The position numbers and the translations under genes were made by a program. From contig JAHHGU010000013.1 of the NCBI GenBank assembly GCA_019359765.1, positions 9,574 to 73,573 of the forward strand: 64,000 nt of DNA. Direction: 5' to 3'. This DNA is from Aphanothece sp. CMT-3BRIN-NPC111. GTDB taxonomy: Bacteria; Cyanobacteriota; Cyanobacteriia; Cyanobacteriales; JAHHGU01. The notes under the pieces are model-generated. The model was not told where the DNA came from and searched no databases. It worked only from the letters and a program-made list of their open reading frames with translations. Shown here piece by piece: positions 37,513 to 64,000 of this stretch; position 1 is the stretch's first letter, and each line of letters opens with the position of its first letter.

Positions 37513-38847
37513 ATGAGTGAAGCTGACACCCCCCATAACCAGCCCCTCCCTGAACCAAGTGATTTGATTAATACCAATGTTACTGATTTAACGGAGGCAA
37601 TCGGCATGACACTGCCAGGGCAAGCAGAGGAAGCTGATTGGATGGCACTGGCGAAAAAGCTGCGTCAGCACAATCACACCCTGATGCAGCAGGTGGCTCA
37701 GTTAGAGCAAGCATTAGGAGAGTGTCAGGAGGCATTCGGAGCGCAGCAGGCGCGATCGCAGGTACAAGAAACACTACTCCTCCAGCAAACCGAGGAACTC
37801 AAGACCGCCCAAGAGCAGGTAAATCGCCTGTTCCGCGAACTAGAATCGTCTCATCAAGCCGCCCAACGCCAGCAGATTTTGGTTAAAACCTTATCGCAGC
37901 AGCTGGAAAGTAGCCAGGAACGAGTTGCCCAGATAGAGCGGGAATGCGCCCTCACCCAGCAACGCAATAACGAGCAGTCTCACCAGCTGTTGCAAACAGA
38001 AAATGTATGTCAAGAGCTACACACCCGTCTACAGCGACAGCAACGCCAAACCCTGCAATTCAAAACAGCCCTAGAAAACTGTCTGGAAACGCCAGCGCCC
38101 AGTTTAGAAGCCAAAGCTGAACCCAGCAGTTCTGCCCAGTCACAACGCCACCTCAAAAGTCTTCTCGCGGAACTATCCCTGCTGCCCAAAGCGCAGCCCA
38201 TCCAACCTTGGTCAGCACAACCAGAGTTACTAGAAGAGAGTGCTGACGTTGAGCCTAGTTGGAGTAGTCAAACACCGCCTGAGTTTCTCTCACCAGATAC
38301 AGATGCGACATCCCCTAGGGAAAGCCCTACAAACTCCAGCGTGCGTACAGACTGGGAGCCGTTCGAGGAAATGCCCAGCGATGAAACCTTCTCACCAGCA
38401 GGTGCTCATAATCAACCTGACTCAATGGCAGATATTTCAGCCACTGAGCAAGAATTAGAACAGCAGTTGCTTGCCGATATACCGGATATAGCATGGATGC
38501 TTCAGTTGTTGGATGAACAGGATGAGGATTTACCCTCAAAAGCCTCCCCTGACTCAGCAGATAATGAGGGTTCAGAGCTTTATCTAAATGAGGGCAAACA
38601 AAGCACTCTGCCCCTACAGGAAGCTTTCCCGCCAGAAAACACCGATGAGATGGACACGGAGGTGGAGGGACAGAACGCGGATTCACTAGAAGATTTTGCC
38701 GCCCCTGAGCCAGTTCAGCGTCAAGAGCAGATTCTAGCCCAATACAATTGGCCATCCCCGGTGCTTTATCCGCTACGTACTTCTAAAAAGCTAAAGTCCT
38801 TGGCGGCAATTGAGTTGCCCAGCTTTCCTCCTTATCGGCATTTGTAA
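37513..38847 (+). CDS. Hypothetical Q-rich coiled-coil / acidic protein
   Basis: 444-aa ORF with a long Q/L/E heptad region followed by an acidic, S/P-rich C-terminal half. Confidence 0.5.
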   Translation: MSEADTPHNQPLPEPSDLINTNVTDLTEAIGMTLPGQAEEADWMALAKKLRQHNHTLMQQVAQLEQALGECQEAFGAQQARSQVQETLLLQQTEELKTAQEQVNRLFRELESSHQAAQRQQILVKTLSQQLESSQERVAQIERECALTQQRNNEQSHQLLQTENVCQELHTRLQRQQRQTLQFKTALENCLETPAPSLEAKAEPSSSAQSQRHLKSLLAELSLLPKAQPIQPWSAQPELLEESADVEPSWSSQTPPEFLSPDTDATSPRESPTNSSVRTDWEPFEEMPSDETFSPAGAHNQPDSMADISATEQELEQQLLADIPDIAWMLQLLDEQDEDLPSKASPDSADNEGSELYLNEGKQSTLPLQEAFPPENTDEMDTEVEGQNADSLEDFAAPEPVQRQEQILAQYNWPSPVLYPLRTSKKLKSLAAIELPSFPPYRHL

Positions 38848-40287: not shown

Positions 40288-42360
40288 CTATTGTTTCTGG
40301 GGACGCCCCATGCCCGCCGTGAGGGCGTAACTCTGAGTCAACAACCACAGCCAGAGAGACGGTGACCAATCTTCCAGCCAGGGTTCTAACCGTTGCAGGA
40401 AGCCCGGAAACCACCCCCCCACCAAACCGCTAAGCAGGGCGTTGCTGGTGAAGTCTACATAGCTTCCTAACCAGCGCAGTAGATCTTTAGGGCCTGCGAG
40501 TTCCCAGATCCAAAGCAGCAAGGCTGGATTTTTTCTGGCTGCTTTAAGTGCCAGCCGATTGAATGTCAGCCAATCAGATCGATCCTTAATAAATGTGTCT
40601 GCCACTACGGGTGGTTCCTCAGCCAAAAGCCCAAAGAAGGTATTGAGCATGGCATTAATTCGCTGGGGTGGCAAGTAGCGATGAGTGGGAACCATCATGC
40701 CTTTAGAAAACAGCCAAGTGACTGAGATGTTGCTTTGGTAAGCACGAATTTGGTTCAAGGCATTGGCGTCCAAAAGGTCATGCTTGAGGGCTGTCTTCAG
40801 GAGATCTGTCAAGCGAGGCAGATTACGCACTAAGGAACCAAAGCCGGTGAAGACGAGGGGAGATTGGAGGGAGGCGGCATCACCAATGGCGATTAGGCGG
40901 TCAAAGGCAACAGTGCGATCGCGGCTTCCCACACTAAAATGACCGGGAATATAGCCAAAGGTCGGCTTCTTCCACACCAGCTTTTCCATATCGCATCGGC
41001 GATACTCTGGCAGAATTGTAAAGAAGTCTTCATACATCTCCAATAAAGAGCCAGGATTGTCTGGATGTACCTGATGGTAGTGGAACAAATAGATAGTGAT
41101 TTCCTCACCAGCACCTGGGAACAACTCCCAAATTAGCTGACGCCCCCGCGAGATATCCCCGTGACTGTTAAGAACGTCGCCATAATTAGAATCCCAAACG
41201 CCAGGTTCAAACCCACTAGCGATCGCAGCTCCCACTGTAGGACAAACACTATCAAAAGTGCGACCTCCATTCAGCTGCCATGCGATCGGTGATGCCGTTC
41301 CCATCGCATCCACTAGCAGACGCCCACTGGCTTGCCGCTGCGATTTATTTAATAAGTGTTTTGCCTCAACGACAACTTGTGTCGCTTCCACATCTGCTCT
41401 GATAAACTCTGTCTCATCCCAAATTTCACCACCAGCTAGCGTGAGTTTTTCCCCACACATCCGCAGTAACTTCTCTGCATCCAACGCCACGTTCAACACG
41501 GTTGGGGTGTGCAATATTGGCGCTCTGAGGTGACTTGGGTTATTGGCATCAAAAAATTTACTGAATCCGTCTATATACTCCTTGGCAATAAAGCTTTCCA
41601 ACTCCGCCTCTGTAAATAAACCCAAATCAATCAAGTTTTGCAGCTCTTTTCGAGAAATATTCCACTCCCGGTTCATGCGCCCAAAAGGTAGCCGTTCTAT
41701 CAGCAGCACCCGGTAGCCCAGTTGCGCCATAACTGCGGCGTGGATTACTCCCAAGGCACCCCCTACATAAATTAAGTCGTAGGTAGGGGTGAGGGGCACA
41801 GGAGGAGAATTTGGCTTAGAAATCTCCCCTGCTGTGCCCTGGCTCTTGAACACAACCTGCTTAGGCTGCTGGGGATTACGGACGCCCTCTCGCCACCGCT
41901 TCTCCCACCAGTAGACGCGGTTGAGGTCGTACTCACCGTTGGGCATTTTCTGAAAGTAGTGGACTGTCAGGGGGTAGTAGGAAGCCAAAGCTTCAAATAT
42001 AGACTGTTGTGACAAATCAACATCTGGTGGTTCGGGATATTGTACGGGGAACTGCTTTCTGAGATCCGCACTCAATTGCCCAATAATTTGTTGCTCATCG
42101 GCAATCGGTTGATTCCCTGTGCGAAAGGCTTTCAGGTAGGTAGTCCGCTGCACTGACCACACAAACACTGAGATTTCAGAAATTGTCTGTGCTGGGGATG
42201 TATGAGTGTCATTGCTGCCCCCCTTACTCTCAAATTGCAGCTTGATACCATCGGGGGTGGTAATTTTCTCTCCTAGCCCACAGAACCATGCTTGTTGCAA
42301 CCAGAGACGGATAGCATCTATATCCGGGGTAGGAACTTCTAAGTAAAGAATTTCTTTCAT
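40288..42360 (-). CDS. FAD/NAD(P)-binding oxidoreductase family protein (possibly CruA/CruP-type lycopene cyclase family)
   Basis: 690 aa. A dinucleotide-binding-like stretch YDLIYVGGALGVIHAAVMAQLGYRVLLIER lies about 195 aa from the N-terminus. The family guess is from memory only. Confidence 0.4.
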   Translation of the reverse strand: MKEILYLEVPTPDIDAIRLWLQQAWFCGLGEKITTPDGIKLQFESKGGSNDTHTSPAQTISEISVFVWSVQRTTYLKAFRTGNQPIADEQQIIGQLSADLRKQFPVQYPEPPDVDLSQQSIFEALASYYPLTVHYFQKMPNGEYDLNRVYWWEKRWREGVRNPQQPKQVVFKSQGTAGEISKPNSPPVPLTPTYDLIYVGGALGVIHAAVMAQLGYRVLLIERLPFGRMNREWNISRKELQNLIDLGLFTEAELESFIAKEYIDGFSKFFDANNPSHLRAPILHTPTVLNVALDAEKLLRMCGEKLTLAGGEIWDETEFIRADVEATQVVVEAKHLLNKSQRQASGRLLVDAMGTASPIAWQLNGGRTFDSVCPTVGAAIASGFEPGVWDSNYGDVLNSHGDISRGRQLIWELFPGAGEEITIYLFHYHQVHPDNPGSLLEMYEDFFTILPEYRRCDMEKLVWKKPTFGYIPGHFSVGSRDRTVAFDRLIAIGDAASLQSPLVFTGFGSLVRNLPRLTDLLKTALKHDLLDANALNQIRAYQSNISVTWLFSKGMMVPTHRYLPPQRINAMLNTFFGLLAEEPPVVADTFIKDRSDWLTFNRLALKAARKNPALLLWIWELAGPKDLLRWLGSYVDFTSNALLSGLVGGWFPGFLQRLEPWLEDWSPSLWLWLLTQSYALTAGMGRPQKQ

Positions 42361-46446: not shown

Positions 46447-46600
46447 CTTGACACTCCCCGGCGTAAACGCACGGGGATTCTTCTCTCTACGAGCCAACTT
46501 GCTCACGGCAGGTTTTCACCAACCAATGTAGGGGTCGATTCTCCAGAAGCGTTGCTCATGTTGACCATGAAAGTTCCGGTATGCCCTACCGTACTCAATC
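46447..46600 (-). ncRNA. Predicted omega-RNA (reRNA) of the tnpB element
   Basis: By analogy with characterised TnpB systems, the guide RNA would overlap the tnpB 3' end. It would terminate at the right-end hairpin GAATCCCCGTGCGTTTACGCCGGGGAGTGTCAAG (the + strand CTTGAC is at 46447-46452). The 5' boundary is a guess. Confidence 0.4.
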
Positions 46601-47678
46601 CCCGACTCAGGATGTTTCTCGCTGCGTTGTGATCTCTATCCAGCACACATCCACACTGGCAAGCGTGAGTGCGGGTGGAGAGGGACTTCTTAACCACAGT
46701 GCCGCATTGAGAGCATTCCTGACTTGTTCCGGCGGCGGTTACGGCAATGGTAATTTTTCCAAACACCTTGCCGAAGTATTCCAGCCACACTCGGAACTGA
46801 TACCAAGAAGCATCGTTAATACACTTGGCAAGACAGTGATTCTTCACCATGTTTTTCATCCTCAAGTCTTCGTAGACCACAACATCGTTAGATGTGATTA
46901 CGCACCTTGCCAACTTCACGGCATGGTCTTTACGCTGTCTACTTATTTTGAGGTGGCGTTTGCCCAGAATCACTCTGGCTTTCATCCTATTGTTAGAATT
47001 CTTAACTCGTCTAGATACAAGCCTTTGAGCCTGTCTTAATCGTCTCGCCCCCAAGCGTAGAAACCTAGGGTTATCAACTGTTTGAGCATTGCTATCGGTG
47101 TAGAAATCGTTAAGTCCTACATCTAACCCAATCGCATTGCCGGACGGTGCAATTTCAGAAGTACGAGCCACCTGAATACAGAACTGTACATAGTAACCAT
47201 CTGCTCTCTTCACCAGCCTGACTCGTTTGATTTGATGAGGCTGGTAGAAGTTTAAATCACGGGTTCCTTTGAGCTTGAGTCTGCCAATATTCTTCTTGTC
47301 AGTGAACGTGATTGAATGGCGATCGTCTGCCAGCTTCCATCCGCAGGTTTTATACTCGACTGAGCGGTTATCTTTCTGAAATTGTGGATAGCCCTTTAAT
47401 CCTGGGGTCTGTGATTTACAGTTCTCCAAGAATCTGCTAATAGCTGACCATGCCCGTTCAGCTGCGGCTTGACGGGCCATGCTGTTGAGTTCATTAACAA
47501 ACGGAAACTCTTTAGCCAATACCGCGCAATACTTGTTGAGATCGCTTTGAGACTTACCCAGTTGATCGAAAAAGAAGCGTAATGCTTTGTTGCGAATAAA
47601 CTGAACAGTTCTCAACGCCTCATCAATAGCGCTGAATTGGCTGGCTTTTCCGTAGGCTTTGAACTCCAGTACAATCAT
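46503..47678 (-). CDS. tnpB: TnpB RNA-guided endonuclease (IS200/IS605 family, IS1341-like); no tnpA
   Basis: RuvC motifs IGLDVGLND, VVVYEDL and DRDHNAARNI, plus the zinc ribbon CSQCGTVVKK...HACQCGC. The ORF is intact at 391 aa. Confidence 0.9.
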   Translation of the reverse strand: MIVLEFKAYGKASQFSAIDEALRTVQFIRNKALRFFFDQLGKSQSDLNKYCAVLAKEFPFVNELNSMARQAAAERAWSAISRFLENCKSQTPGLKGYPQFQKDNRSVEYKTCGWKLADDRHSITFTDKKNIGRLKLKGTRDLNFYQPHQIKRVRLVKRADGYYVQFCIQVARTSEIAPSGNAIGLDVGLNDFYTDSNAQTVDNPRFLRLGARRLRQAQRLVSRRVKNSNNRMKARVILGKRHLKISRQRKDHAVKLARCVITSNDVVVYEDLRMKNMVKNHCLAKCINDASWYQFRVWLEYFGKVFGKITIAVTAAGTSQECSQCGTVVKKSLSTRTHACQCGCVLDRDHNAARNILSRGLSTVGHTGTFMVNMSNASGESTPTLVGENLP

Positions 47679-52167: not shown

Positions 52168-53634
52168 CTAACTTCCTACAGCTGCTTCTAACTTTTGCAA
52201 ATTGGCAGAGGAGCGAGGCGGTAATAAGCATCCCTCTCGCAATTCCTGTACGCTACCTTTAACAGCCTGAATTATGTAGTCAAGATCTTCATCTGTATGG
52301 GCAGTGGATAGGAAACCGCCACCGTTTCGTAGGAGGATTCCCCTGTCAACGAGGTGATAGTATAACAAGTCCATCCCCGCTGAGCCTTCATTTTCCGAAG
52401 AGGCAGAATTTTCAGAAGCAGCAGGGCCAAAAAGTGAACCAAAATTCACCATGCGGATAGGCACTTCGTCTTCTTGAAAGTAAGTATTCAGTGTTTCAAT
52501 AAACTGCGATGTGCGTTGATTCAACTGCTGTTGAAGAGCAGAACCCTGAGTTTTTAGATGCTTCAGTACAGCCCGTGCAGCAGCCATTGCTAGCGGATGC
52601 TTGCAAAAGGTGCCTGCAAAAAAGGTTGTTTTTACCTGAGGATAGGATGCATCTCCATAGTTCCACATCCCGCCGTCGATTCTATCCATATAACTAGCTT
52701 TGCCAGCAACGATTCCAATCGGCATACCACCGCCAACAATTTTTCCGTATGTTGCTATGTCTGCTTCAATGCCAAACCATGCCTGCGCTCCTCCCGGATG
52801 AATGCGGAATCCGCTAACCATTTCATCGAAGATTAATGCTATCCCTGATTCTTTTGTTAATTGCCTTAGTTGCTGGAGAAAAGCTTTGGGCTGGAAGTCT
52901 ATTCTGCTGCTCTGCACGGGTTCAACTAAAACAGCTGCTAATTCATGTTCATGCGCTTTTATCGCCTCCAAGGACTGAGGATTGCCATAATCTAAAACCA
53001 AAATATCTGCAACAAGATTTGACGTTATGCCTGGGGCAAGTGGTACTGGATTTGGATAGTCGTCTACAGCCTTTGCTTTAACTAAAGTTCCATCAAAATG
53101 CCCATGATAAGAACCTGAAAATAGGGCAATTTTATTACGACCTGTTGCTGCTCGTGCCAGTCGTAACGCCGTCATCACGGCTTCTGTGCCTGTATTACTA
53201 AAGGCTACTCGCTCCATCCCCGTTAGTTCAGAAATCAACTGGGCAACCTCACCAGCTAATTCAGCTTGTGGGCCAATTTGTATACCTAGATCGAGTTGCT
53301 CTTCTAGGGCTTCTTTGATAAAAGATGGATTGTGACCAAAGAGATTTACGCCATAACCCATTGTGACATCGATATATTCATTACCATCGACATCCCATAT
53401 TTTGGAGCCGAGCGATCGCTTGGCCACAATTGGGTAGAACATTTCCTTGAGATGAAAATTGAAACCTACAAAGGTCTTGTTGTCAGCTATAACTGGGCGA
53501 TAGGTTTGTGCAAGTTGCTTTGATGTTTTTGTGCGCTTGGTATAGCGTTCGGTTAATCTCTGCAAATGCTGCTGCTGACGAATATTTATGCTACTTGTGG
53601 TTTCAGGCTGGGAAGGCATTTTTTTTGTACTCAT
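52168..53634 (-). CDS. Class-III (GSA-aminomutase-like) PLP aminotransferase, stand-alone, associated with the NRPS cluster
   Basis: FSNTGTEAVMTALRLAR, SGSYHG, and the PLP-lysine region ATYGKIVGGGMPIG. Confidence 0.8.
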   Translation of the reverse strand: MSTKKMPSQPETTSSINIRQQQHLQRLTERYTKRTKTSKQLAQTYRPVIADNKTFVGFNFHLKEMFYPIVAKRSLGSKIWDVDGNEYIDVTMGYGVNLFGHNPSFIKEALEEQLDLGIQIGPQAELAGEVAQLISELTGMERVAFSNTGTEAVMTALRLARAATGRNKIALFSGSYHGHFDGTLVKAKAVDDYPNPVPLAPGITSNLVADILVLDYGNPQSLEAIKAHEHELAAVLVEPVQSSRIDFQPKAFLQQLRQLTKESGIALIFDEMVSGFRIHPGGAQAWFGIEADIATYGKIVGGGMPIGIVAGKASYMDRIDGGMWNYGDASYPQVKTTFFAGTFCKHPLAMAAARAVLKHLKTQGSALQQQLNQRTSQFIETLNTYFQEDEVPIRMVNFGSLFGPAASENSASSENEGSAGMDLLYYHLVDRGILLRNGGGFLSTAHTDEDLDYIIQAVKGSVQELREGCLLPPRSSANLQKLEAAVGS

Positions 53635-53949: not shown

Positions 53950-56900
53950 CTACGAGGGGTATTTAAGTTCAATTTCCGATGTTGGGGTATGTAGGAAAGA
54001 GTTATCAATTAGGTATGAGAAGTAGGTACGAAGCAACTCAACATTTACTGGCGGACAGACTATAGAAGTACCTGCAAGTCCATTGAGTGTATTTTGGCAA
54101 TCGAACTTTAGCTCTGCTGAGTTAGACGTTGGCTCTTCGGATACCTTTTGAGAAACAACAGGCAAAAGGGGATACAATGCGTTTGAGGGCGATCGCTCTG
54201 CGACTTTGAGCAGCTCTGTTTGCCACTCGTTCTCTGAAATTTGCTGAAGTGGGTAGCCAAAAGTACAAATCCAACTAACAAACTCGTTCCACTGGGCGGG
54301 GTTAGGATTAACTAAGTGAAATGTTTTCCCCAGGGATTCTTGCTGCTTGGATAAATGAACAATTGCTTGGCTGACATAATCTACAGGCATTATGTTCACC
54401 ATCGCGTTACGCTTTGGGGCGCTTCCAAGTTGGATACAGCCTTTGATTGTTCTGAATGTATGATCATCTGGATTACAGGCACCAGTTTTGCTGTGTCCTG
54501 CTACACGTCCTGGCCTGTAAATAGATACAGGAAGTCCGCGATCGCCGGCAATATTTACTAACTTTTCCGCAACCCATTTACTCTGAATGTAGCCACCCTC
54601 AAGCACTTCATGAGCATCAGCACAATACTGTTCTCGTATTAGCGTAATGTCATTATTGCCTGCTGGGACGGCAACGCTGGTGCTAGAAATGAAATGCACA
54701 GGCTTGATTTTGAGTTGGCTTGCCAATCTTAAAATTTCCTGCGTTCCTAGCACGTTGGCAGCCTTTAGAACAGAATAGGGAAAAGTAAAATTAACAAACG
54801 CACCATTGTGATAAATGGCATCAATTATACTAGCCATCTCCCTAAACTGCTGCTCTGAAAGCCCCAACAGTGGCTTAGACAGTTCCCCGATCACAGGGAT
54901 AATTCGAGATTGAAAAGATTCATTCCAGATAGAATAAAGTTCTAAGCTGCTTTGAATCTTTTGTTTGCCTAACTCAGCATTTGAGGCGCGTACTAGGCAA
55001 TAGATATCTGCCTGACTTTGCTGGAGAAGTTCATAAAGTAAAAAAGATCCTAGAAAGCCTGTTGCTCCTGTCAATAAGATAGCCGTTGGTTCTGTGGTAT
55101 GCCTATAAAATAGGGATTTAGGACAAATTGTGGGATCTAAGACAGCTTCGGCGTTTAAATCGACAGCAGTATCTGAAGCAATCTTCTCAGAAGATTTTGT
55201 CTGATGAGCATTCTCAATACTTTCTGCCAAGGCAGCTATAGTAGGTGCTTCAAACAAACTGCGTAAAGGCAATTCTACTTGGAAAGCTTCACGCACTTTG
55301 GCAAGCAGCTGAGTCACTAACAGCGAGTGTCCCCCCAGATCGAAGAAGTTGTCGTGAATTCCTATCTTTTCAAGACCAAGAACTTTCATCCAGATTTCTG
55401 TTAGTGCTTCTTCAACTGGGGTGCGAGGCGCTACAAAAGTTTCCGCTAACTCAGGGCGCGTGTGGTCTGGTGTTGGCAGCGCTTGACGGTCTACTTTCCC
55501 GTTTGGCGTCAAAGGTAAGGTTTTCAAGACTATGAAAGCCGATGGCATCATGTACTCAGGCAACTTTTCCTTGAGGAAGTTCCTGATTTCATTGATGTTG
55601 GGTGTTTGACGAGGAACTATATAAGCTACCAAACGAGCATTTCCTGGTTCGTCCTCTCGAACTACAACGACAGCTTCCCGTATTAATTGATGTTGGCTAA
55701 GTAAGGCTTCAATTTCTCCTAATTCAATACGGTAGCCTCGAATTTTTACCTGATGGTCAATCCGTCCGATAAACTCGATGTTTCCATCGGGGAGGTAACG
55801 CGCCGTATCACCTGTTTTGTAAAGACGCGATCGCGGTTGGTCACAGAAAGGGTTGGGAATAAATTTTTCTTGAGTCAGTTCAGGACGATTCAAATAGCCC
55901 CGTGCTAAAGATGCGCCGCCGATATATAGTTCCCCTGGAACCCCGATAGGAACAGGTTGTAGATGTTTATCTAGTAAATAAATCTGTGTATTGGGAATTG
56001 GGCGACCTAATGGAACTGTCTCACCTACTCGATTTTGGACTTGATAGGTCAGAACACCAACAGTTGCTTCTGTAGGGCCATAGTGGTTAAAAATGAGGCA
56101 CTGCGGCGAGTGTTTCTGGATTTGCTCGATTAAATCCCAACTAGCCGTTTCGCCACCAAGGATTAATCGTTGCTGAGGTAAGATGTCGCTGGCGTAGGAG
56201 GATGCTAATAAAGCTTTCAGGTGAGAAGGAACAATTTTTAGGCAATCAATGGGATGGCGACGACAGTAATCTGCTAGTGCTTCAGGATCGGCAGCACGTT
56301 CTGAGGAGACTATATGAAGGCATCCACCTGTAGATAAGGAAGAAAAGATCGCTGTATTGCCTAAATCAGCAGCAAAGGTGGAGACTATCGCAAAGCTTGC
56401 ACCAAGGGGCAGGTCTAATCTTTCAAGGATACCGTCAAGGTAATTGAGAAGCTGTTGATGTTCAACGGCGACTCCTTTAGGTTTGCCTGTTGAGCCAGAA
56501 GTGTAGATTGTATAGGCTAAGTTTTTGGGTATTACGTTGCTAGATGGATTCTCGGTGTTTTGTTGAGCAATAACATCCCAATCTGTATCTAGATAAACTA
56601 TCTGCGTTGCCTGTTCGGGAAGTTCCTTGACTAGCTGGTTGTGGGTTAACAAAATTGGGGCTTGGGCATCTTGTAACCGAAAAGCTATACTTTGTGCTGG
56701 TAAGGCGGGGTCTATTGGTAGGTAAGCGCCACCTGCTTTGAGGATGCCGAGAATGCCAACGAGTATATCAAGAGATCGCTCTAGGCAAATTCCCACCAGC
56801 ACCTCTGGTTTTACTCCCAGTTTTTGCAAGTGATGGGCAAGTTGATTGGCACGTGCATTTAGTTCCGCATAGGTGAGTTGCCGATCTTCAAAGACAACGG

Positions 56901-58341
56901 CGATGTTATTGGGTGTGCGTTTTGCTTGCTCCTCGAATAGCTGATGGATACACTGGGTGGTGGGATAATCAGCCTGGGTGTTGTTGAATTCGGTGAGGAT
57001 CTGGTGGCGATCGCGATCGCTTAATATCTCTAATTGACTAATGCCAGCTTCAGGATGGGCGATCGCACTGTTTACCAACGTCTGCAAATGCCCTGCTAAA
57101 CGCTGAATATCCTCTGCACTGAATAAATTAGCGTCATAATGAAACGCGGCAATTAAAGAATCTTCCTGGCGAGTGCAGGAAAGTTTAACTTTGAATTTGT
57201 CAATACAGGCATACTGCTTGTAAATTGAAAATGATACTTCAGCAGCCGCATACTTTTCAGGTTGTTCAACAAAATCAAAACTAAATGGAAAACTAGATAA
57301 TTCCTCAATTTGTTCCCAACTAAAATACTCCTCCCATTGGGAGATGTCTTTTACCGTTTCATCAACCTGCGTCAATAGTTCGTTGAATTGGCTATCTGCT
57401 TGCAGATTACAAGTCAGCGGTAAATATTTAGAAAATAGTCCTATTGCTGCCTCTAGTTCCTCATATTTTCGACCATGAGAAGCTGTGGCAATAACAATAT
57501 CTGCCTGTCCAATAAATTTCCAAAGTAGAATTTGCCAACAGGTTAGCAAGAATACAGACGTATCTATATCATACTGCTGCGCTAAGGTTTCTATTTTAGC
57601 AACCGTATTCGGATCAATCTTCCATTCAAAAGATTTAACCTCCAAGAAACGGTTGGGTGTTACAGCTTTAGCTTCAAAAGGTAGTTTTAAACTTATCAAA
57701 TCTGACCGATATACTTGATTCCAGTAGTATTTGCCGACTTCTGCATCTTCATCCTCAAGTAATTGATTTTGCCACTCGGAAAATTGCACATATTGCACAA
57801 CTTCCTCACTTATTTCTTCACCTTTAAGGCAAGCATCATAAGACTGACCTATTTCCTGAACCAAATTATTGAGTGTCCAATTATCCGCGCAAAGTGCCGA
57901 CAGAGTTACGAGCAAAATATGCTTTTCGGCTGATAGCTTAAATAGGCATAAACGCAACAGCGATGTTTGCTCTAATTCCCCATTTAAGCTTTTTTCTTTT
58001 TCAAGGAAAGACTCGAATTGAGTTAATTGCTGTTCAGGCCTAAAAGTACTTAGATTAATTTCACGCCACAATAGTAGGCTGCTATCTGCTATCACCTGAA
58101 CAGGAGTTTTTACCCCCAGCGGGCGGCGAAAGTTTGTGCGGAGAATCTCATGGCGATCGCTAACTTGCTGTAAAGCAACTTTGAGAACCTCTTTTTTGAT
58201 ATTTCCTTCGATGAGAATAGCGCCTTGAACCTGGTAGGGGCATGGCGCTGCCGCGCCCCTACTTTCTTGGTGTAATAGCCAAAGACGTTTTTGTTGAGGA
58301 GAAAGGCGAAATCCCTGAATCACTTTATCTTGTAATTGCAT
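53950..58341 (-). CDS. NRPS: C-like (no HHxxxDG) - A - T - R (terminal thioester reductase)
   Basis: 1463 aa. The C-like domain begins FRLSPQQKRLW but carries LSALCADNW at the active-site position. A-domain motifs are LAYTIYTSGSTGKPKG, NHYGPTE, GELYIGG and PNGKVDR. The T domain has FFDLGGHSL. The R domain has LLTGATGFLGSFLL and YIQSK. It overlaps the upstream gene by 17 nt. Confidence 0.9.
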   Translation of the reverse strand: MQLQDKVIQGFRLSPQQKRLWLLHQESRGAAAPCPYQVQGAILIEGNIKKEVLKVALQQVSDRHEILRTNFRRPLGVKTPVQVIADSSLLLWREINLSTFRPEQQLTQFESFLEKEKSLNGELEQTSLLRLCLFKLSAEKHILLVTLSALCADNWTLNNLVQEIGQSYDACLKGEEISEEVVQYVQFSEWQNQLLEDEDAEVGKYYWNQVYRSDLISLKLPFEAKAVTPNRFLEVKSFEWKIDPNTVAKIETLAQQYDIDTSVFLLTCWQILLWKFIGQADIVIATASHGRKYEELEAAIGLFSKYLPLTCNLQADSQFNELLTQVDETVKDISQWEEYFSWEQIEELSSFPFSFDFVEQPEKYAAAEVSFSIYKQYACIDKFKVKLSCTRQEDSLIAAFHYDANLFSAEDIQRLAGHLQTLVNSAIAHPEAGISQLEILSDRDRHQILTEFNNTQADYPTTQCIHQLFEEQAKRTPNNIAVVFEDRQLTYAELNARANQLAHHLQKLGVKPEVLVGICLERSLDILVGILGILKAGGAYLPIDPALPAQSIAFRLQDAQAPILLTHNQLVKELPEQATQIVYLDTDWDVIAQQNTENPSSNVIPKNLAYTIYTSGSTGKPKGVAVEHQQLLNYLDGILERLDLPLGASFAIVSTFAADLGNTAIFSSLSTGGCLHIVSSERAADPEALADYCRRHPIDCLKIVPSHLKALLASSYASDILPQQRLILGGETASWDLIEQIQKHSPQCLIFNHYGPTEATVGVLTYQVQNRVGETVPLGRPIPNTQIYLLDKHLQPVPIGVPGELYIGGASLARGYLNRPELTQEKFIPNPFCDQPRSRLYKTGDTARYLPDGNIEFIGRIDHQVKIRGYRIELGEIEALLSQHQLIREAVVVVREDEPGNARLVAYIVPRQTPNINEIRNFLKEKLPEYMMPSAFIVLKTLPLTPNGKVDRQALPTPDHTRPELAETFVAPRTPVEEALTEIWMKVLGLEKIGIHDNFFDLGGHSLLVTQLLAKVREAFQVELPLRSLFEAPTIAALAESIENAHQTKSSEKIASDTAVDLNAEAVLDPTICPKSLFYRHTTEPTAILLTGATGFLGSFLLYELLQQSQADIYCLVRASNAELGKQKIQSSLELYSIWNESFQSRIIPVIGELSKPLLGLSEQQFREMASIIDAIYHNGAFVNFTFPYSVLKAANVLGTQEILRLASQLKIKPVHFISSTSVAVPAGNNDITLIREQYCADAHEVLEGGYIQSKWVAEKLVNIAGDRGLPVSIYRPGRVAGHSKTGACNPDDHTFRTIKGCIQLGSAPKRNAMVNIMPVDYVSQAIVHLSKQQESLGKTFHLVNPNPAQWNEFVSWICTFGYPLQQISENEWQTELLKVAERSPSNALYPLLPVVSQKVSEEPTSNSAELKFDCQNTLNGLAGTSIVCPPVNVELLRTYFSYLIDNSFLHTPTSEIELKYPS

Positions 58342-61300
58342 TGTTTGCCTCCAGAGATTTATGTTTAATGTCTTCGTTACTGATTATTTCTCCCATTGCC
58401 ACCACAATTTTGCGAGGGCCTACATAGGGATTGCGTCCGTGTGCAGTTAGCATATTGTCCAGCATGAGAATGTCCCCTTTCTGCCAAGGGAAACTAATTG
58501 TCGCCTCTCGATAAACAGCAGATATTTCCTCTACTATCGAGTCTTCAATGGGCGTGCCATCGCCGTAATAAACATGGCGTGGTAAATTTTCTTCCCCAAA
58601 TAATGACAACAATGATTCGCGCACATCTGAATCTAAACAGGATATATGATGTAACTGAATTTGATTGAAAAACACCATTTCGCCTGTTTGAGGATGTTTA
58701 GTCACTGCTGGACGAATCTCGCGGGTTCTTAAACTGTTGTTATCTTTCCACTCAAAAGCAATTGAATTCTGGCGACAGTAATCTTCTACAACTGTTTTGT
58801 CGCTTGTATGAAAGAATTCTGTCCAGTTAACATCTAGCCCTTCTGTGTAGTTCCGCACATACATTAATTGCTTTTGTGCGAATCTTTCTCTCAGCTTGGG
58901 GTCAAGCAGTTGATAAACTTTCCGACAGTCAACAATGGGAGTTTCTCCTCTTTGTTGTGCTGGTTGCACGCAGAAAAACCAAATTTTCATTGGCCATCGG
59001 TGCATATGCGAGCTTTCATTGTGAAATAATATGGCTTTGTCGGGTGGATAAGGGGTAGAACCGTAGACTTTACCACCAACTCCTTCGCGAGGTAAGTCAC
59101 CATATTCACCAAATAGTTCTGGACAGATAGCTTGGGCAAAATTCTCAAACTCAGACACGGAATTTGTATTAAAGCCCCGGAATAGGATTGCACCGTGCTT
59201 TAACAACTGTGTTTCTACAAATTCCCGATTATTCTTTGCCCAGTCTGCTATATCAATATCCTCTATAGCAGGCTCGACAACCAAAGGTAGTGTTTGTCCT
59301 GGCTCTAAATAGTCTGTTTTGATTAATTTCTTTTCTGGCAAGCTTACAGCTTTGGGCTTGACCATTTTGAACTTACTGAAGTTAACCTCTTTGCGTTTTT
59401 TCTGTTCTAGGAATTGTTTCTGCTTTTCAGCTGCGGTAAGCATTTCCAGAGCGTTTAGGCGTGAGTCAGGCTGTTTCACAATGCTACTTAGTAGTGTTTC
59501 AAAATTGTTGGACATTCGCGCGATCGCACTTTCACTAAATAAATCGGTGCTGTATTTCCAGTTGACAATTATTCCCTGTTCTGTTTCCGTCACGAAGAGA
59601 GCCAAATCAAACTTGGACATTTCATCTTTGACTTCTAAGGGGTGCAAAGTGAGATGGGAAAGTTTGATAGATACTGAGGGAGTATTTTGAAAAACGAACA
59701 ATACCTGAAATAGCGGCGTGTGATTTAAATTCCGTTCTGGTCGCAGTTCCTCTACCAGCTTTTCAAAAGGCAAGTCTTGGTGAGTATAAGCTTTTAAGGT
59801 GAGTTCTCGGACTCGCTGTAGCAACTCCCGAAAACTGGGATTCCCACGCATATCTGTGCGTAAGACGAGGAGGTTCACAAAGAAACCAATTAAAGCCTCT
59901 GTTTCGCTGCGAGTACGGTTAGCAATATCCGTGCCAACAACGATGTCATCCTGATTTGTATAGCGGTGTAGCAGCGTTTGAAATGCTGCCAGCAGGGTCA
60001 TATATAAGGTGACATTTTCCTGGTTGCTGAGTTCTTGGAGTCGCTTTGATAAGTTTAAAGACAGTTCGCAGGTTTGGCTAGCACCTTGGAAGGTTTGGAT
60101 ATGCGATCGCGGTTTATCGGTGGGTAACTCCAGGGCCGGGGGATTTCCTCCCAGTAGTTGTTTCCAGTAGGTTAGTTTGGCTTCTAGCACTTCTCCCTGT
60201 AACCATTGGCGTTGCCAAACTGCAAAGTCTGCGTACTGGATAGAGAGTTCTGGGAGTGGAGAAGGTTTCCCGGCAGATAAGGCTTCGTACAATGTTGCTA
60301 ATTCCTGAATCAGCACTCCCATAGACCAGCCATCAGAAACGATGTGGTGCATTGTTAAAAGCAGTACATGATCGGTTGAATTTAGCCGTAATAAAGTTAC
60401 CCGTAATAATGGGGGGTAAGCTAAATCAAAAGGTTTTAAAGCTTCTGCTTTTGCTAACCGTTGCACCTCTGTTTCTTGTTCAGAATCAAGTTCTATAACT
60501 GGTAATTGGAGATTACAGGTTGGGGAAATAACTTGAATGGGTCGTCCTTCAACTGTGGCAAAGCTAGTCCGTAAGATTTCGTGACGGCGCACAACTTCAT
60601 TGAAGCTTTGTTCTAAGGCGGCGACGTTGAGGGAACCTGTAAGGCGAACGGCAGCGGGAACGTTGTAGAGGGGGCTTTCTGGTGCTAGCTGGCTGAGAAA
60701 CCACAGGCGCTGTTGGGCAAAGGAAAGGGGTAATTCTTGATTCCGGGAAACACGCTGGATGGGCGGTGCTTCTGTAAATCCCCCCTTAAAAAGGGGGGTA
60801 GGAGAGGCGATGGTGCTTCGCACCGTCCTTCGGACGAACGCACTTTTAACACTTTCAGCTAGTCCGCCTACAGTCGGCGACTCAAACAGACAGCGCAGCG
60901 GTAGTTCAATATCAAAGGTGTCCCGCACTCGCGACATTACCTGAGTTGCTATTAGAGAATGTCCCCCTACATCAAAAAAGTTATCGTTGACACCGACTTG
61001 TTCAATACCCAGAACTTCAGAAAAAATGCTAGCTAGTTGTTCCTCAATTAAATTGCGTGCTGCTAGATAGTTGTCTTCTAGATCGAGTCGAACTAAATCA
61101 GGAGAAGGAAGTGCTTTTCGATCTACCTTGCCGTTAGGTGTCAGGGGTAGGGCATCCAAGACCACAAAGGCTGATGGCACCATATAATCTGGCAGCTTTT
61201 CTTGCAGGTAGTCGCGTAGCTGGGGGGCTAAATCGCGGGCAACTTTCCCCTGCAAGGGATTATTGGCATAAGCATTCCAGGGTTTGATAACGTTTCTTGA

Positions 61301-64000
61301 CGGGAAGATAGGAGATCCCCCCAACCGCCCTTGAAAAGGGGGGCTAAGAGTTGTGCGCCGTCGAAATACTACGTCATAAATACCATCTGCGCTGGAGCCT
61401 AACCAACTGATATCGATGGAATAGGGGAATTTGTCGCCTAATGCCCAGAAGTCTTCTGGCTCGATTCCAGCTTCTTGAGTGATTTCTGCTAGGGTTGAGC
61501 GTAGTTCGCCTACTGTTTCTGGTGCTTCATCATTGGCAAGTAGTTCTAATGCCTTGACTTCTGTTGCTAAACGTGGATTAGGGATATGTCGTAGTCCGAG
61601 GATTTCTGGCTGGGTTGATTCTAGTAATTCGCTTACAGAGGCGAGTGTTAATTTCTGCTGCTGCCAGTCCAACAAGTTGAGATCCCCCCAACCCCCCTTA
61701 AAAAGGGGGGCTATGCGTGAGTCTTGATTTGATGTTTCTACTTCTGTTCCTACATGGAGGATTGCATCGTAGCGGAACTTGCTGAGTTCATTGTTGTAGT
61801 GTCCCCGCTTAGGCTGAATCTGGACGTGAGTAATCTGCGGTAAGTGTTGCTGAAGGGCAGTGAAGAAAGCGGGGTCGATTACCAGTTCCTCTTCTTGGGC
61901 GATGCGTTTTTGTATGCGCTGTCGCAGTTCGGTTGTGGGTAGAGTGTCGGGGGCTTGATACAACTGCACTGATGTATGGAAGGCTTCTAGTAGGGGGAGG
62001 CTACGCACATCTCCCAGGAAGATAAACCCTCCAGGTGCTACGGCACAGGCAGCACCTTCTAAGACGCGCAACAGATAGTCGATGTTAGGAAAATATTGAA
62101 CAACGGAGTTGATAATTACTGCATCGAAGGCTGCTGTCTCGACTCCCTCAAAGTTGTCTGCCATTCTGTGAAACAGGCTAACTTGGGGCAAAGCCCGTTC
62201 TGGCATTTTTAACTGCTGTTGAATGTAGTTTAAAGCTGGTTGTGAGAAGTCACAGCCAACATATTGGGTGCAGTGGGGAGCAATTCTAAACAGCAGCAAA
62301 CCACTACCACAACCAATTTCTAAGACACGTTTTGGTTTTAAGGACAAAACTCGCTCAACGGTAGATTCTACCCACTGGCGCATCTCTTCTGCTGGAAGGG
62401 GCTGGTCTGTATAGCTGCTATTCCAGCCAGTGATATTCAGTGTTGGGTCTTGAGTTGGAGTAGTTTGGCTGTAGGTTTCATCATAGAGCGATCGCCACTG
62501 GGATATTTGCTCTGCTGGCAACTCTTTCTGGTTCTCCTCCAAGTCGTTAGATGAGGAGTTGGCAACGATGTAAGCGATTAGTCGTTTATCTCCAGGTGTA
62601 TCTTCTCTAACTAAAGCGATCGCATCTTGCAAAGCCGAATGTTGTTTTAGGGTGGCTTCAATTTCTTCTAACTCAATGCGGAAGCCGCGCAGTTTTACCT
62701 GTTGGTCGATGCGTCCCAGAAACTCAATGTTGCCATCTGGTAAGTAACGAGCTAAGTCACCTGTTTTATACAGGCGCGATTTTGTTTCTTGGCTAAATGG
62801 ATTGGTAATAAATCGATCGGCGGTAAGATCGGGACGGTTAAGGTATCCCCTCGCCAAACTGATACCCCCGATGTACATTTCCCCAGGAACACCGATGGGA
62901 ACTGGCTGCAACTGGGTATCCAGAATATAAATTTGTGTATTAGCGATTGGACGTCCAATGGGCAGTTTGCGATCGCCCTCAGTACATTCAGCGACAGTGG
63001 CACAAACGGTTGTTTCTGTGGGGCCATAAGCGTTGAAGAACCGCCGTCCAGGTGCCCATTGTGCTACAAGGTCAGGAGAACAAGCTTCTCCGGCGACAAT
63101 AATTGTCCGCAATGCAGGCAGATCCTCAGAAGGCAGAACCGCCAGCACTGAGGGCGGCAGGGTAACAATCGTAATCGCTTCCTCGCGCAATAGCTGCATT
63201 AAAGCCGAACTATCCAGTAAGGTGTCTCTGCTTGCCAGTACGAGGGTTGCCCCCAATCCTAGAGCCATGACAACTTCCCAAACAGAGGCATCGAAGTTTA
63301 ATGAAGCAAACTGGAGAATGCGGCTATCTGGCTGCACGTCGAAGAGTTGCTGCTGCGCTTGGCTTAGGTTGTATAAGCCTCGGTGCGCCACTAATACACC
63401 TTTAGGTCTGCCTGTAGATCCTGATGTATAGATAACGTATGCCAGGTTAGAAGAGTTTTGAGTTTTGAGTTTTGAGTTTTGAGTTTTGAGTTTTAAGGTT
63501 TGTATAACTTTCCAATCGGTATCTAGACATACAACTTTGGCGTTGTGTGAGGGAAGTGTATTTAAAAATTGTTGCTGGGTTAGCAATACCTGCACTTGAG
63601 CGTCTTCTAGCATGAAAGCTAGGCGCTTCTTTGGATATGCAGGGTCTAAGGGGACGTAAGCACCACCTGCTTTGAGAACGCCAAGTAGGGCTACTACCAT
63701 GTCTAGCGATCGCTCAAGGCAAATACCGACCAGTACCTCTGGTTTTACGCCTAGCTTTTGCAGGTAATGCGCTAGTTGATTGGCTCGTTGATTGAGTTCT
63801 CGGTAAGTTAACTGCTGGTTTTGAAAGACGAGTGCAACAGCATCCGGTGTCTGTTCTGCCTGGGCTTCAAACAGTTGATGAAAACAAACATCCTTGAATA
63901 ATTCTGCCTGCTGAGTATTATTCCACTCCAACAGTAGCTGATGCTGTTCAGGCTGAGTCAGCAATGGCAAATCTAAGAGGCTGCGATCGGGATTGGCAAC
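58325..64000 (-). CDS. NRPS (5' end beyond window): ...C(end)-A(with embedded methyltransferase)-T-C-TauD/TfdA-like dioxygenase
   Basis: The reading frame stays open through to nt 64000 (VANPDRSLLDLPLLTQPEQ is a C-A linker). A-domain motifs: LAYVIYTSGSTGRPKG, NAYGPTE. The MT motif VLEIGCGSGLLL lies between A8 and A9. The T domain has FFDVGGHSL, and the C domain has MHHIVSDGWS. The C-terminal ~320 aa carry FHNESSH...LTAHGR (a 2-His-1-carboxylate pattern). Confidence 0.9.
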   Translation of the reverse strand, partial: VANPDRSLLDLPLLTQPEQHQLLLEWNNTQQAELFKDVCFHQLFEAQAEQTPDAVALVFQNQQLTYRELNQRANQLAHYLQKLGVKPEVLVGICLERSLDMVVALLGVLKAGGAYVPLDPAYPKKRLAFMLEDAQVQVLLTQQQFLNTLPSHNAKVVCLDTDWKVIQTLKLKTQNSKLKTQNSSNLAYVIYTSGSTGRPKGVLVAHRGLYNLSQAQQQLFDVQPDSRILQFASLNFDASVWEVVMALGLGATLVLASRDTLLDSSALMQLLREEAITIVTLPPSVLAVLPSEDLPALRTIIVAGEACSPDLVAQWAPGRRFFNAYGPTETTVCATVAECTEGDRKLPIGRPIANTQIYILDTQLQPVPIGVPGEMYIGGISLARGYLNRPDLTADRFITNPFSQETKSRLYKTGDLARYLPDGNIEFLGRIDQQVKLRGFRIELEEIEATLKQHSALQDAIALVREDTPGDKRLIAYIVANSSSNDLEENQKELPAEQISQWRSLYDETYSQTTPTQDPTLNITGWNSSYTDQPLPAEEMRQWVESTVERVLSLKPKRVLEIGCGSGLLLFRIAPHCTQYVGCDFSQPALNYIQQQLKMPERALPQVSLFHRMADNFEGVETAAFDAVIINSVVQYFPNIDYLLRVLEGAACAVAPGGFIFLGDVRSLPLLEAFHTSVQLYQAPDTLPTTELRQRIQKRIAQEEELVIDPAFFTALQQHLPQITHVQIQPKRGHYNNELSKFRYDAILHVGTEVETSNQDSRIAPLFKGGWGDLNLLDWQQQKLTLASVSELLESTQPEILGLRHIPNPRLATEVKALELLANDEAPETVGELRSTLAEITQEAGIEPEDFWALGDKFPYSIDISWLGSSADGIYDVVFRRRTTLSPPFQGRLGGSPIFPSRNVIKPWNAYANNPLQGKVARDLAPQLRDYLQEKLPDYMVPSAFVVLDALPLTPNGKVDRKALPSPDLVRLDLEDNYLAARNLIEEQLASIFSEVLGIEQVGVNDNFFDVGGHSLIATQVMSRVRDTFDIELPLRCLFESPTVGGLAESVKSAFVRRTVRSTIASPTPLFKGGFTEAPPIQRVSRNQELPLSFAQQRLWFLSQLAPESPLYNVPAAVRLTGSLNVAALEQSFNEVVRRHEILRTSFATVEGRPIQVISPTCNLQLPVIELDSEQETEVQRLAKAEALKPFDLAYPPLLRVTLLRLNSTDHVLLLTMHHIVSDGWSMGVLIQELATLYEALSAGKPSPLPELSIQYADFAVWQRQWLQGEVLEAKLTYWKQLLGGNPPALELPTDKPRSHIQTFQGASQTCELSLNLSKRLQELSNQENVTLYMTLLAAFQTLLHRYTNQDDIVVGTDIANRTRSETEALIGFFVNLLVLRTDMRGNPSFRELLQRVRELTLKAYTHQDLPFEKLVEELRPERNLNHTPLFQVLFVFQNTPSVSIKLSHLTLHPLEVKDEMSKFDLALFVTETEQGIIVNWKYSTDLFSESAIARMSNNFETLLSSIVKQPDSRLNALEMLTAAEKQKQFLEQKKRKEVNFSKFKMVKPKAVSLPEKKLIKTDYLEPGQTLPLVVEPAIEDIDIADWAKNNREFVETQLLKHGAILFRGFNTNSVSEFENFAQAICPELFGEYGDLPREGVGGKVYGSTPYPPDKAILFHNESSHMHRWPMKIWFFCVQPAQQRGETPIVDCRKVYQLLDPKLRERFAQKQLMYVRNYTEGLDVNWTEFFHTSDKTVVEDYCRQNSIAFEWKDNNSLRTREIRPAVTKHPQTGEMVFFNQIQLHHISCLDSDVRESLLSLFGEENLPRHVYYGDGTPIEDSIVEEISAVYREATISFPWQKGDILMLDNMLTAHGRNPYVGPRKIVVAMGEIISNEDIKHKSLEANNAITR
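60780..60798. repeat. In-frame palindromic mini-repeat CCCCCCTTAAAAAGGGGGG (copy a)
   Basis: Encodes PLFKGGF in the T-C linker. Short GC hairpins flank it, up to about nt 60845. Confidence 0.8.
61314..61345. repeat. In-frame mini-repeat GATCCCCCCAACCGCCCTTGAAAAGGGGGGCT (copy b)
   Basis: Encodes SPPFQGRLGGS. Confidence 0.8.
61681..61715. repeat. In-frame mini-repeat GATCCCCCCAACCCCCCTTAAAAAGGGGGGCT (copy c)
   Basis: Encodes APLFKGGWGDL. It is nearly identical to copy b. Confidence 0.8.
63453..63494. repeat. 6 x GAGTTTT heptamer tract inside the NRPS A domain
   Basis: 42 bp, equal to 14 codons, translated as KLKTQNSKLKTQNS just upstream of the A3 core motif. Confidence 0.9.

Follow-up and report, generated by a model that had tools for sequence, protein, structure and literature searches.

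A condensation-like domain without catalytic histidines, very probably of the interface subtype, opens an Asp-code NRPS protein in the cyanobacterium Aphanothece sp. CMT-3BRIN-NPC111

In glycopeptide synthetases, the X domain is a dead condensation (C)-type domain that recruits P450s to the carrier-bound substrate, and it is the sole domain with such a role for which complexes have been solved. The interface (I) domain is another subtype of C domain in nonribosomal peptide synthetases (NRPSs); it was reportedly defined by Reitz et al. 2019, who are said to have proposed that it docks hydroxylases. I domains occur only at the start of proteins (He et al. 2023, PMC10212144), and antiSMASH 8 holds profiles for the subtype. 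Leptolyngbya sp. NIES-3755 carries the cyanochelin B cluster on its plasmid 2 (AP017310.1), and there L-threo-β-hydroxy-aspartate (β-OH-Asp) at the position equivalent to the one treated here is assigned to an NRPS-fused hydroxylase (PMC12628792). According to a preprint on cyanochelin C, its last, C-terminal residue, β-OH-Asp or 2,4-dihydroxy-3-aminobutyrate, arises from a C domain and a TauD domain on one open reading frame (ORF) working together with the following ORF. Here we analysed 64,000 nucleotides of Aphanothece sp. CMT-3BRIN-NPC111 (GCA_019359765.1, contig JAHHGU010000013.1, positions 9,574 to 73,573; hereafter the window), in which one NRPS protein, encoded by ORF B, begins with a C-like domain that lacks both catalytic histidines. 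This domain is very probably an I domain, a catalytically dead C subtype, within an NRPS module that is split between ORF B and the preceding ORF A. The junction between the two proteins has the following features (window coordinates; A, adenylation; T, carrier; R, reductase; HMM, hidden Markov model).

53950–58341 (−): ORF B, 1463 aa, in the order I (dead C-like), A (Asp), T and R (thioester reductase)
58325–64000 (−): ORF A, 5′ end outside the window, with A (Phe code, methyltransferase inside), T, C and TauD
56995–58308 (−): interface-type condensation-superfamily domain, ORF B aa 12–449 (PF00668, I-subtype HMM, neighbour-joining clade, AlphaFold2)
57877–57903 (−): C3-equivalent motif LSALCADNW, in place of (M)HHxxxDG(W) (translation and alignments)
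59417–60739 (−): canonical LCL-type C domain of ORF A (Pfam 416.9 bits), with MHHIVSDGWS at 60323–60352
58397–59263 (−): TauD/TfdA-type Fe(II)/2-oxoglutarate dioxygenase domain at the C-terminus of ORF A (PF02668, 163.8 bits)

On the minus strand, the N-terminal domain of ORF B reads LSALCADNW opposite the MHHIVSDGW of the upstream C domain: Ser and Ala stand in for the two histidines, the Asp is retained and Asn takes the position of the Gly. The register of the motif was identical in two MAFFT alignments and in a phmmer search against PDB chain sequences, and motif misalignment was ruled out by this agreement. In the phmmer alignment, 'hillvtlsalcadnwtlnnl' aligned column for column with Txo1 'HVLLLTMHHIVSDGWSMSVL', and within it the stretch hillvtlsalcadnwtl was paired with Txo1 HVLLLTMHHIVSDGWSM. 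Inspection of the whole domain translation revealed no other HHxxxDG. The domain is otherwise complete, since PF00668 spans aa 12–449 at profile positions 6–456 of 456 (234 bits, versus 417 for the upstream C domain), and the core motifs C1 (LSPQQKRLW), C2 (RHEILRTNF) and C4 (QYVQFSEWQ) are kept. The Asp is present in all 106 homologous domains surveyed (78 loci), and not one of them has a His at either position; therefore, the loss reflects neither chance nor sequencing error. The initial annotation had reported that both catalytic histidines are missing at 57877–57903 while other C-domain landmarks persist, and the translation and the three concordant alignments bear out both statements. It had also located an intact MHHIVSDGWS in the upstream C domain; this motif is present, with its coordinates shifted by one or two bases from the 60325–60353 originally given to 60323–60352 (−).

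Subtype membership was assessed with reference alignments of C-domain subtypes from He et al. 2023 (PMC10212144), using HMMs built from 47 references. The alignments include 14 interface domains from Reitz et al. 2019, and their reference I domains are CucG, TaiE, PfbI, VarH/Var5, SbtI2, PvdK, HcsF/HcsI, AltG/AltI and PvdJ (PMC10212144). The histidine-less domain scored highest against the I HMM (204.7 bits), followed by SgcC5-like (173.9), DCL (141.7), LCL (134.7), X (93.3), modAA (90.7) and Starter (80.1). For the upstream C domain, the corresponding scores were LCL 426, SgcC5-like 425, X 261.2, DCL 221.5, Starter 208.2, modAA 150.4 and I 149. The I HMM contains proteobacterial sequences only and therefore provides an independent test of the window domain; nearly all listed members of its family likewise scored highest as I. 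An NCBIfam search gave generic NRPS matches only and no subtype-specific model.

In a neighbour-joining tree of 402 columns and 200 bootstraps, built with subsampled references and leaving out the E, Cy, Dual, Cglyc and Hybrid subtypes, the window domain and its cyanobacterial family grouped with the reference I domains in one clade with 100% bootstrap support. Within this clade, the reference group and the cyanobacterial group were sisters (85.5% and 77%). The upstream C domain fell outside it, among LCL/SgcC5/X/Starter-type domains, where it adjoined the HHxxxDG-bearing match P0109. Two derived motifs are common to the window group and the reference I domains: C5 reads GxFxKxLP, not GxFxN[TL]LxxR, and C6 reads WQEY, not HQDxPFE. 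At C3, the reference I domains have SPLAAD, HPLAAD, PALHLD and similar sequences. In the PDB sequence search, E domains were far weaker matches and no chain was recognised as a Cy domain. Clustering with ordinary LCL domains, the outcome that the initial annotation had named as fatal to its proposal, was looked for and not seen: the I HMM matched best and the domain lay in the I clade with full bootstrap support. Thus, the ORF B domain combines a full-length C fold, lost histidines and a kept Asp with grouping among I references, an N-terminal site before an Asp A domain and a C-TauD partner upstream; it has neither the HHxxxDG motif nor the LCL-type sequence of a condensing domain. Assignment as an X domain was also rejected, on the grounds of the motif (SALCADN versus HRxxxDD), the N-terminal site before an A domain, the 93.3-bit score and a separate X clade.

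The window domain is a fairly divergent new member of this published subtype, with at most 54% identity to any relative found, and it lies in a cyanochelin-like cluster. Querying a database with the domain gave 122 proteins, with identities of up to 53%. The C3 position reads L-P-[AS]-x-C-A-D-x-x-T-L-x-N-L in about 105 of these, and HHxxxD was found only in the distant tail (<31% identity). Scanning species-representative genomes recovered at least 580 related stretches, mostly cyanobacterial, with the remainder in metagenome-assembled genomes (MAGs) labelled Acidobacteriota, Binatia, Actinomycetota and Deltaproteobacteria. The closest relative listed was from Cylindrospermum sp. NIES-4074 (54% identity), and the best relatives belong to Nostocales and Oscillatoriales. 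Across 24 diverse members, 14 columns were invariant and 24 nearly so. The Cys of the PALCAD motif occurs in most cyanobacterial members; some family members have N, I, L, H, Y, S, V or G in its place, and the reference I domains have A, V, L or G. In 15 orthologous C-TauD/I-A-T-R blocks, median identities were 64% for C, 77% for TauD, 50% for I, 66% for A, 74% for T and 62% for R. The I domain is thus the least constrained and fastest-evolving domain of the block, as expected for a non-catalytic part.

An AlphaFold2 model of the domain, built from a 24-sequence family alignment, had a pLDDT of 89.3 and a pTM of 0.90. Foldseek searches of the PDB matched it to C domains of Txo2, TycC, SrfA-C, DhbF and LgrA at TM scores of ∼0.8, and to the X domain 4TX3 at 0.77. 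The Foldseek matches also included 8Z0Q, named HtmB2-CT.

The proteins around the junction are arranged as a divided module, in which a C domain and TauD form the C-terminus of ORF A and the remaining I-A(Asp)-T-R domains make up ORF B. Besides the features given above, the following are relevant.

61127–63871 (−): Phe-code A domain of ORF A, interrupted by a methyltransferase
55495–56937 (−): A domain of ORF B, code DLTKIGHVGK (Asp type)
55222–55410 (−): T (carrier) domain of ORF B, GGHSL
53992–55080 (−): terminal thioester reductase domain (TIGR01746, 373.9 bits; PF07993)
52168–53634 (−): class-III aminotransferase gene (PF00202, 192 bits), directly downstream of ORF B

The ATG of ORF B, at 58339–58341, is preceded by GGAGG and lies 14 nt upstream of the ORF A stop, such that the two ORFs overlap by 17 nt. 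The TauD domain of ORF A is fused behind the intact LCL-type C domain and carries HNE and TAHGR motifs, which we take to be the 2-His-1-carboxylate iron triad and the 2-oxoglutarate-binding Arg; the triad (HxE...H) is intact. It is 67–78% identical to TauD domains placed likewise in cyanobacterial loci. The ORF B A-domain code, DLTKIGHVGK, presumably selects Asp by the Stachelhaus code, and the adjoining T domain is presumed to be the site of on-line hydroxylation. The proposal in the initial annotation that a dead C-type domain stands at a β-hydroxylase junction therefore agrees with what we found, an intact TauD fused upstream and an Asp-code A domain downstream. In ORF A, the A-domain code DAWTIAAV.. 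is of the Phe type, and the embedded methyltransferase (aa 543–673 of the partial translation; Pfam Methyltransf_12/25/11) suggests a methylated Phe ahead of the terminal Asp.

Next to these features stands a wider association between the I-type domain and TauD. This was examined in 78 loci in which the homologous domain had at least 1.5 kb of upstream sequence, counting a TauD homologue if it ended no more than 1.2 kb upstream. Such a homologue was present in 67 of the 78 loci, fused to the preceding NRPS in 49 and free-standing in 18. The fused TauDs were mostly 68–76% identical to the window TauD (down to 51%), and the free-standing ones 48–54%. Of the remaining 11 loci, four had a TauD within 3.3 kb or a fragment and seven had none within 10 kb (L035, L037, L050, L055, L064, L069 and L072); in these seven, the hydroxylase may act from elsewhere, or the I domain may have another partner. 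The downstream A codes were of the Asp type in 72 of 98 cases, with DS[AV]LIAEVWK, which we read as His-like, in 12 and D[LA]TK[IV]GEVGK, which we read as Asn-like, in eight. The identity of the I domain to that of the window co-varied with the identity of its partner TauD (Spearman 0.755, n = 82), a correlation that shared descent of the block could also yield.

Several loci extend this arrangement. A free-standing TauD is followed by a histidine-less domain in Leptolyngbya boryana pLBX (L078, 1990–4429), in L016, L038, L052, L056 and L063, and in others; after a free-standing TauD (48–54% identical to that of the window), the I domain often precedes an A domain with the code DSALIAEVWK or with codes that we read as Asn-like. 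In a Tolypothrix locus (L022), a gene for a 321-aa JmjC/Cupin_8 oxygenase (8951–9916 (+)) separates the C-TauD NRPS from the I-A-T NRPS. Gaps of 0.85–1.1 kb resembling this one occur in the Nostocales loci L017, L024, L030, L036, L039, L047 and L066; the window has no oxygenase gene of this type. In L023, a 540-aa ORF (7431–9050) that consists almost only of an I-type domain follows a fused TauD, and a second I-type domain (from 10001) precedes an A domain with the Gln-like code DAWQFGLIDK. An I domain and an R domain share one ORF in 25 of the 106 I-like domains surveyed.

One characterised pathway that allows comparison is that of cyanochelin B. Its protein BAU16013.1 ends in a C domain and TauD that are 56% and 67% identical to those of the window, and the next protein, CcsI (BAU16012.1, 1048 aa), opens with a histidine-less domain (38% identity) that reads LTLPALCADTK and precedes an Asp-code A domain. 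With these identities to the AP017310.1 proteins (TauD 67%, C 56%, I 38%), the window has a junction of the ccs type. CcsI thus shares with ORF B the C-TauD/I-A(Asp)-T junction; however, it is a mid-pathway I-A-T protein, whereas ORF B is a terminal I-A-T-R protein, and the residue before the Asp in the window is predicted to be Phe with a methyl group. On L. boryana pLBX, a free-standing TauD/I pair and a fused C-TauD/I pair (51% identity) adjoin an acylase and a TonB-dependent receptor. The same C-TauD/I-A(Asp)-T-R block as in the window is found in Cylindrospermum sp. NIES-4074, Microcoleus and Nostoc loci (L001, L004, L007 and others), but I-domain identity to these closest loci does not exceed 54% and their upstream A domain differs (52% median identity).

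The I domains of proteobacterial β-OH-Asp/His siderophore synthetases resemble the window domain in their C fold, in the loss of HH with retention of Asp, in C5 (GxFxKxLP) and C6 (WQEY), and in their position at an NRPS N-terminus before an Asp A domain, directly after a C-TauD end. The sister clade of the window differs in being mostly cyanobacterial, in its L-P-A-L-C-A-D signature and better-kept C1 and C2, and in having free-standing TauD partners as well. The glycopeptide X domain (4TX2/4TX3, 6M7L) has a dead C-type fold like that of the window model (TM 0.77), but it keeps the first His (HRxxxDD), follows the last T domain and recruits P450s rather than TauD, and the X HMM score of 93 bits and a clade of its own set it apart. 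By analogy, it would be the closest functional counterpart that is experimentally established, and the window domain is not a member of its subtype.

Taken together, these comparisons point to a scheme in which the A domain would load Asp onto the T domain of ORF B while the I domain holds the C-domain fold beside the A domain, replacing a C domain as its partner. The surface of the I domain would bring the T domain, once loaded with Asp, together with the C-TauD terminus of ORF A, and TauD would hydroxylate the bound Asp at C3. Joining the (probably N-methyl-)Phe peptide to the hydroxylated Asp would then fall to the HHxxxDG domain of ORF A, and the R domain would release the chain reductively. 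The initial annotation had named the C domain before TauD as the one that makes the Phe-Asp bond, and our accounting favours the same assignment, since domain bookkeeping leaves the HHxxxDG domain as the sole candidate. That the I domain docks the hydroxylase is inferred in this work, as it reportedly was by Reitz et al. 2019; the contact between I and TauD, the sequence in which hydroxylation and condensation occur and the identity of the product are likewise predictions. In the accessible literature, our searches for an experimental test of a scaffolding role of I domains gave only He et al. 2023 and antiSMASH 8.

A number of points weigh against assigning the domain to the I subtype and coupling it to TauD. 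The I HMM exceeds the SgcC5-like HMM by only 31 bits, and the window family is sister to the reference I domains rather than nested among them (77% and 85.5% bootstrap), in a distance tree built from subsampled references and lacking E, Cy, Dual, Cglyc and Hybrid domains. In seven of the 78 loci, neither strand carries a TauD within 10 kb; the two therefore need not be paired in cis. Contact between I and TauD is a prediction, and no solved structure of an I domain turned up in PDB sequence and Foldseek searches. The window ends before the rest of the cluster, and the product is likewise a prediction.

Four other explanations of the histidine-less domain can be weighed against the same evidence. 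It might be a structural stand-in that keeps the C-A platform and docks the two polypeptides, with TauD finding the Asp-loaded T domain by itself and no specificity for a hydroxylase. The fully preserved fold, the invariable fusion to an A domain at the protein N-terminus, the seven loci with an I domain and no TauD within 10 kb, and a conservation below that of every other domain of the block (median 50% identity versus 77% for TauD and 66% for A) are all compatible with such a role. However, ∼90% of the homologues stand directly after a TauD gene or domain, fused or free-standing, I-domain identity is correlated with that of the partner TauD, and the A codes are almost all Asp or read as His-like or Asn-like. 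A generic docking role would not predict this restriction of A codes and TauD partners and therefore fits less well; we consider it unlikely. It is far less probable still that the domain is an ordinary LCL domain, misaligned or condensing with other residues, even though its best solved-structure matches are the LCL domains of Txo1/Txo2, TycC and DhbF and it retains C1, C2 and C4. Three independent alignments put Ser and Ala at the His positions, the domain holds no other HHxxxDG, and C5 and C6 are altered too. Moreover, the LCL HMM gives 134.7 bits, compared with 426 for the adjacent true C domain; together with the motif alignment and the separation from LCL domains at 100% bootstrap in the tree, this score led us to reject the assignment. 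A canonical C domain without an A-T pair of its own lies just upstream and covers the one bond needed.

Equally hard to credit is a decaying relic of a module rearrangement, with no present function. Loss of the catalytic motif and the lowest conservation in the block would suit a relic, but the domain is full length with a confidently predicted fold, at least 580 related stretches are spread across Cyanobacteria and MAGs (Acidobacteriota, Binatia, Deltaproteobacteria), 14 columns are invariant and 24 nearly invariant among 24 members, and the replacement motif PALCAD is itself conserved. A new catalytic activity, for instance through the conserved Cys of PALCAD, is scarcely conceivable: this Cys is found in most cyanobacterial members but is not universal, either in the family or among the reference I domains, and no chemistry in the expected product requires it.

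With an I domain as the preferred assignment, the module is marked as a maker of β-OH-Asp, a photoreactive iron-binding group, and the locus becomes a probable cyanochelin-type siderophore cluster. For annotation, this means excluding the histidine-less domain from the tally of condensation steps and treating the module as spanning two proteins. The subtype had already been published, and work on the cyanochelins had made the cyanobacterial pairing known; what is added here is a divergent member in a terminal I-A-T-R module. Our survey further places cyanobacterial-type I domains in a well-supported sister clade with its own signature and with both fused and free-standing hydroxylase partners. 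The current picture of the subtype is unchanged by these data, and how an I domain brings TauD to the carrier-bound Asp is no more testable here than in the known systems.

More tentatively, and with the odds slightly against it, the window may hold the tail of an undescribed cyanochelin-like siderophore pathway. In it, the I-A(Asp)-T-R protein would yield a C-terminal reduced β-hydroxy-Asp of the 2,4-dihydroxy-3-aminobutyrate type after N-methyl-Phe, or an aminated derivative by way of the adjacent class-III aminotransferase; the I domain would belong to a separate 'PALCAD' lineage, sister to the reference interface domains, that works with fused as well as free-standing TauDs on Asp codes and on codes that we read as His-like and Asn-like. 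The window covers just the end of the cluster, which continues past 64000. As to the further parts of a cyanochelin-type cluster (a FAAL/lipid start, a second β-OH-Asp module, an acylase and a TonB-dependent transporter), the visible flank (40–53 kb) contains only the aminotransferase and housekeeping genes.

The class-III aminotransferase gene (52168–53634 (−)) is the last recognisable gene of the cluster in the window, and its product could transaminate the released aldehyde or supply β-alanine. In myxochelin B biosynthesis, MxcL reportedly transaminates the released aldehyde. Supply of β-alanine is the role given to the transaminase CcsR in the cyanochelin C preprint. Elsewhere in the window, three large ORFs gave no Pfam match at the thresholds used: 4429–8286 (−), 1285 aa; 37513–38847 (+), 444 aa; and 40288–42360 (−), 690 aa. 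Beyond the aminotransferase lie housekeeping genes and, ∼4.5 kb past the end of the cluster, an IS605 OrfB/TnpB-like gene (46503–47678 (−)) whose product has OrfB_IS605 and a Cas12f1-like TNB domain.

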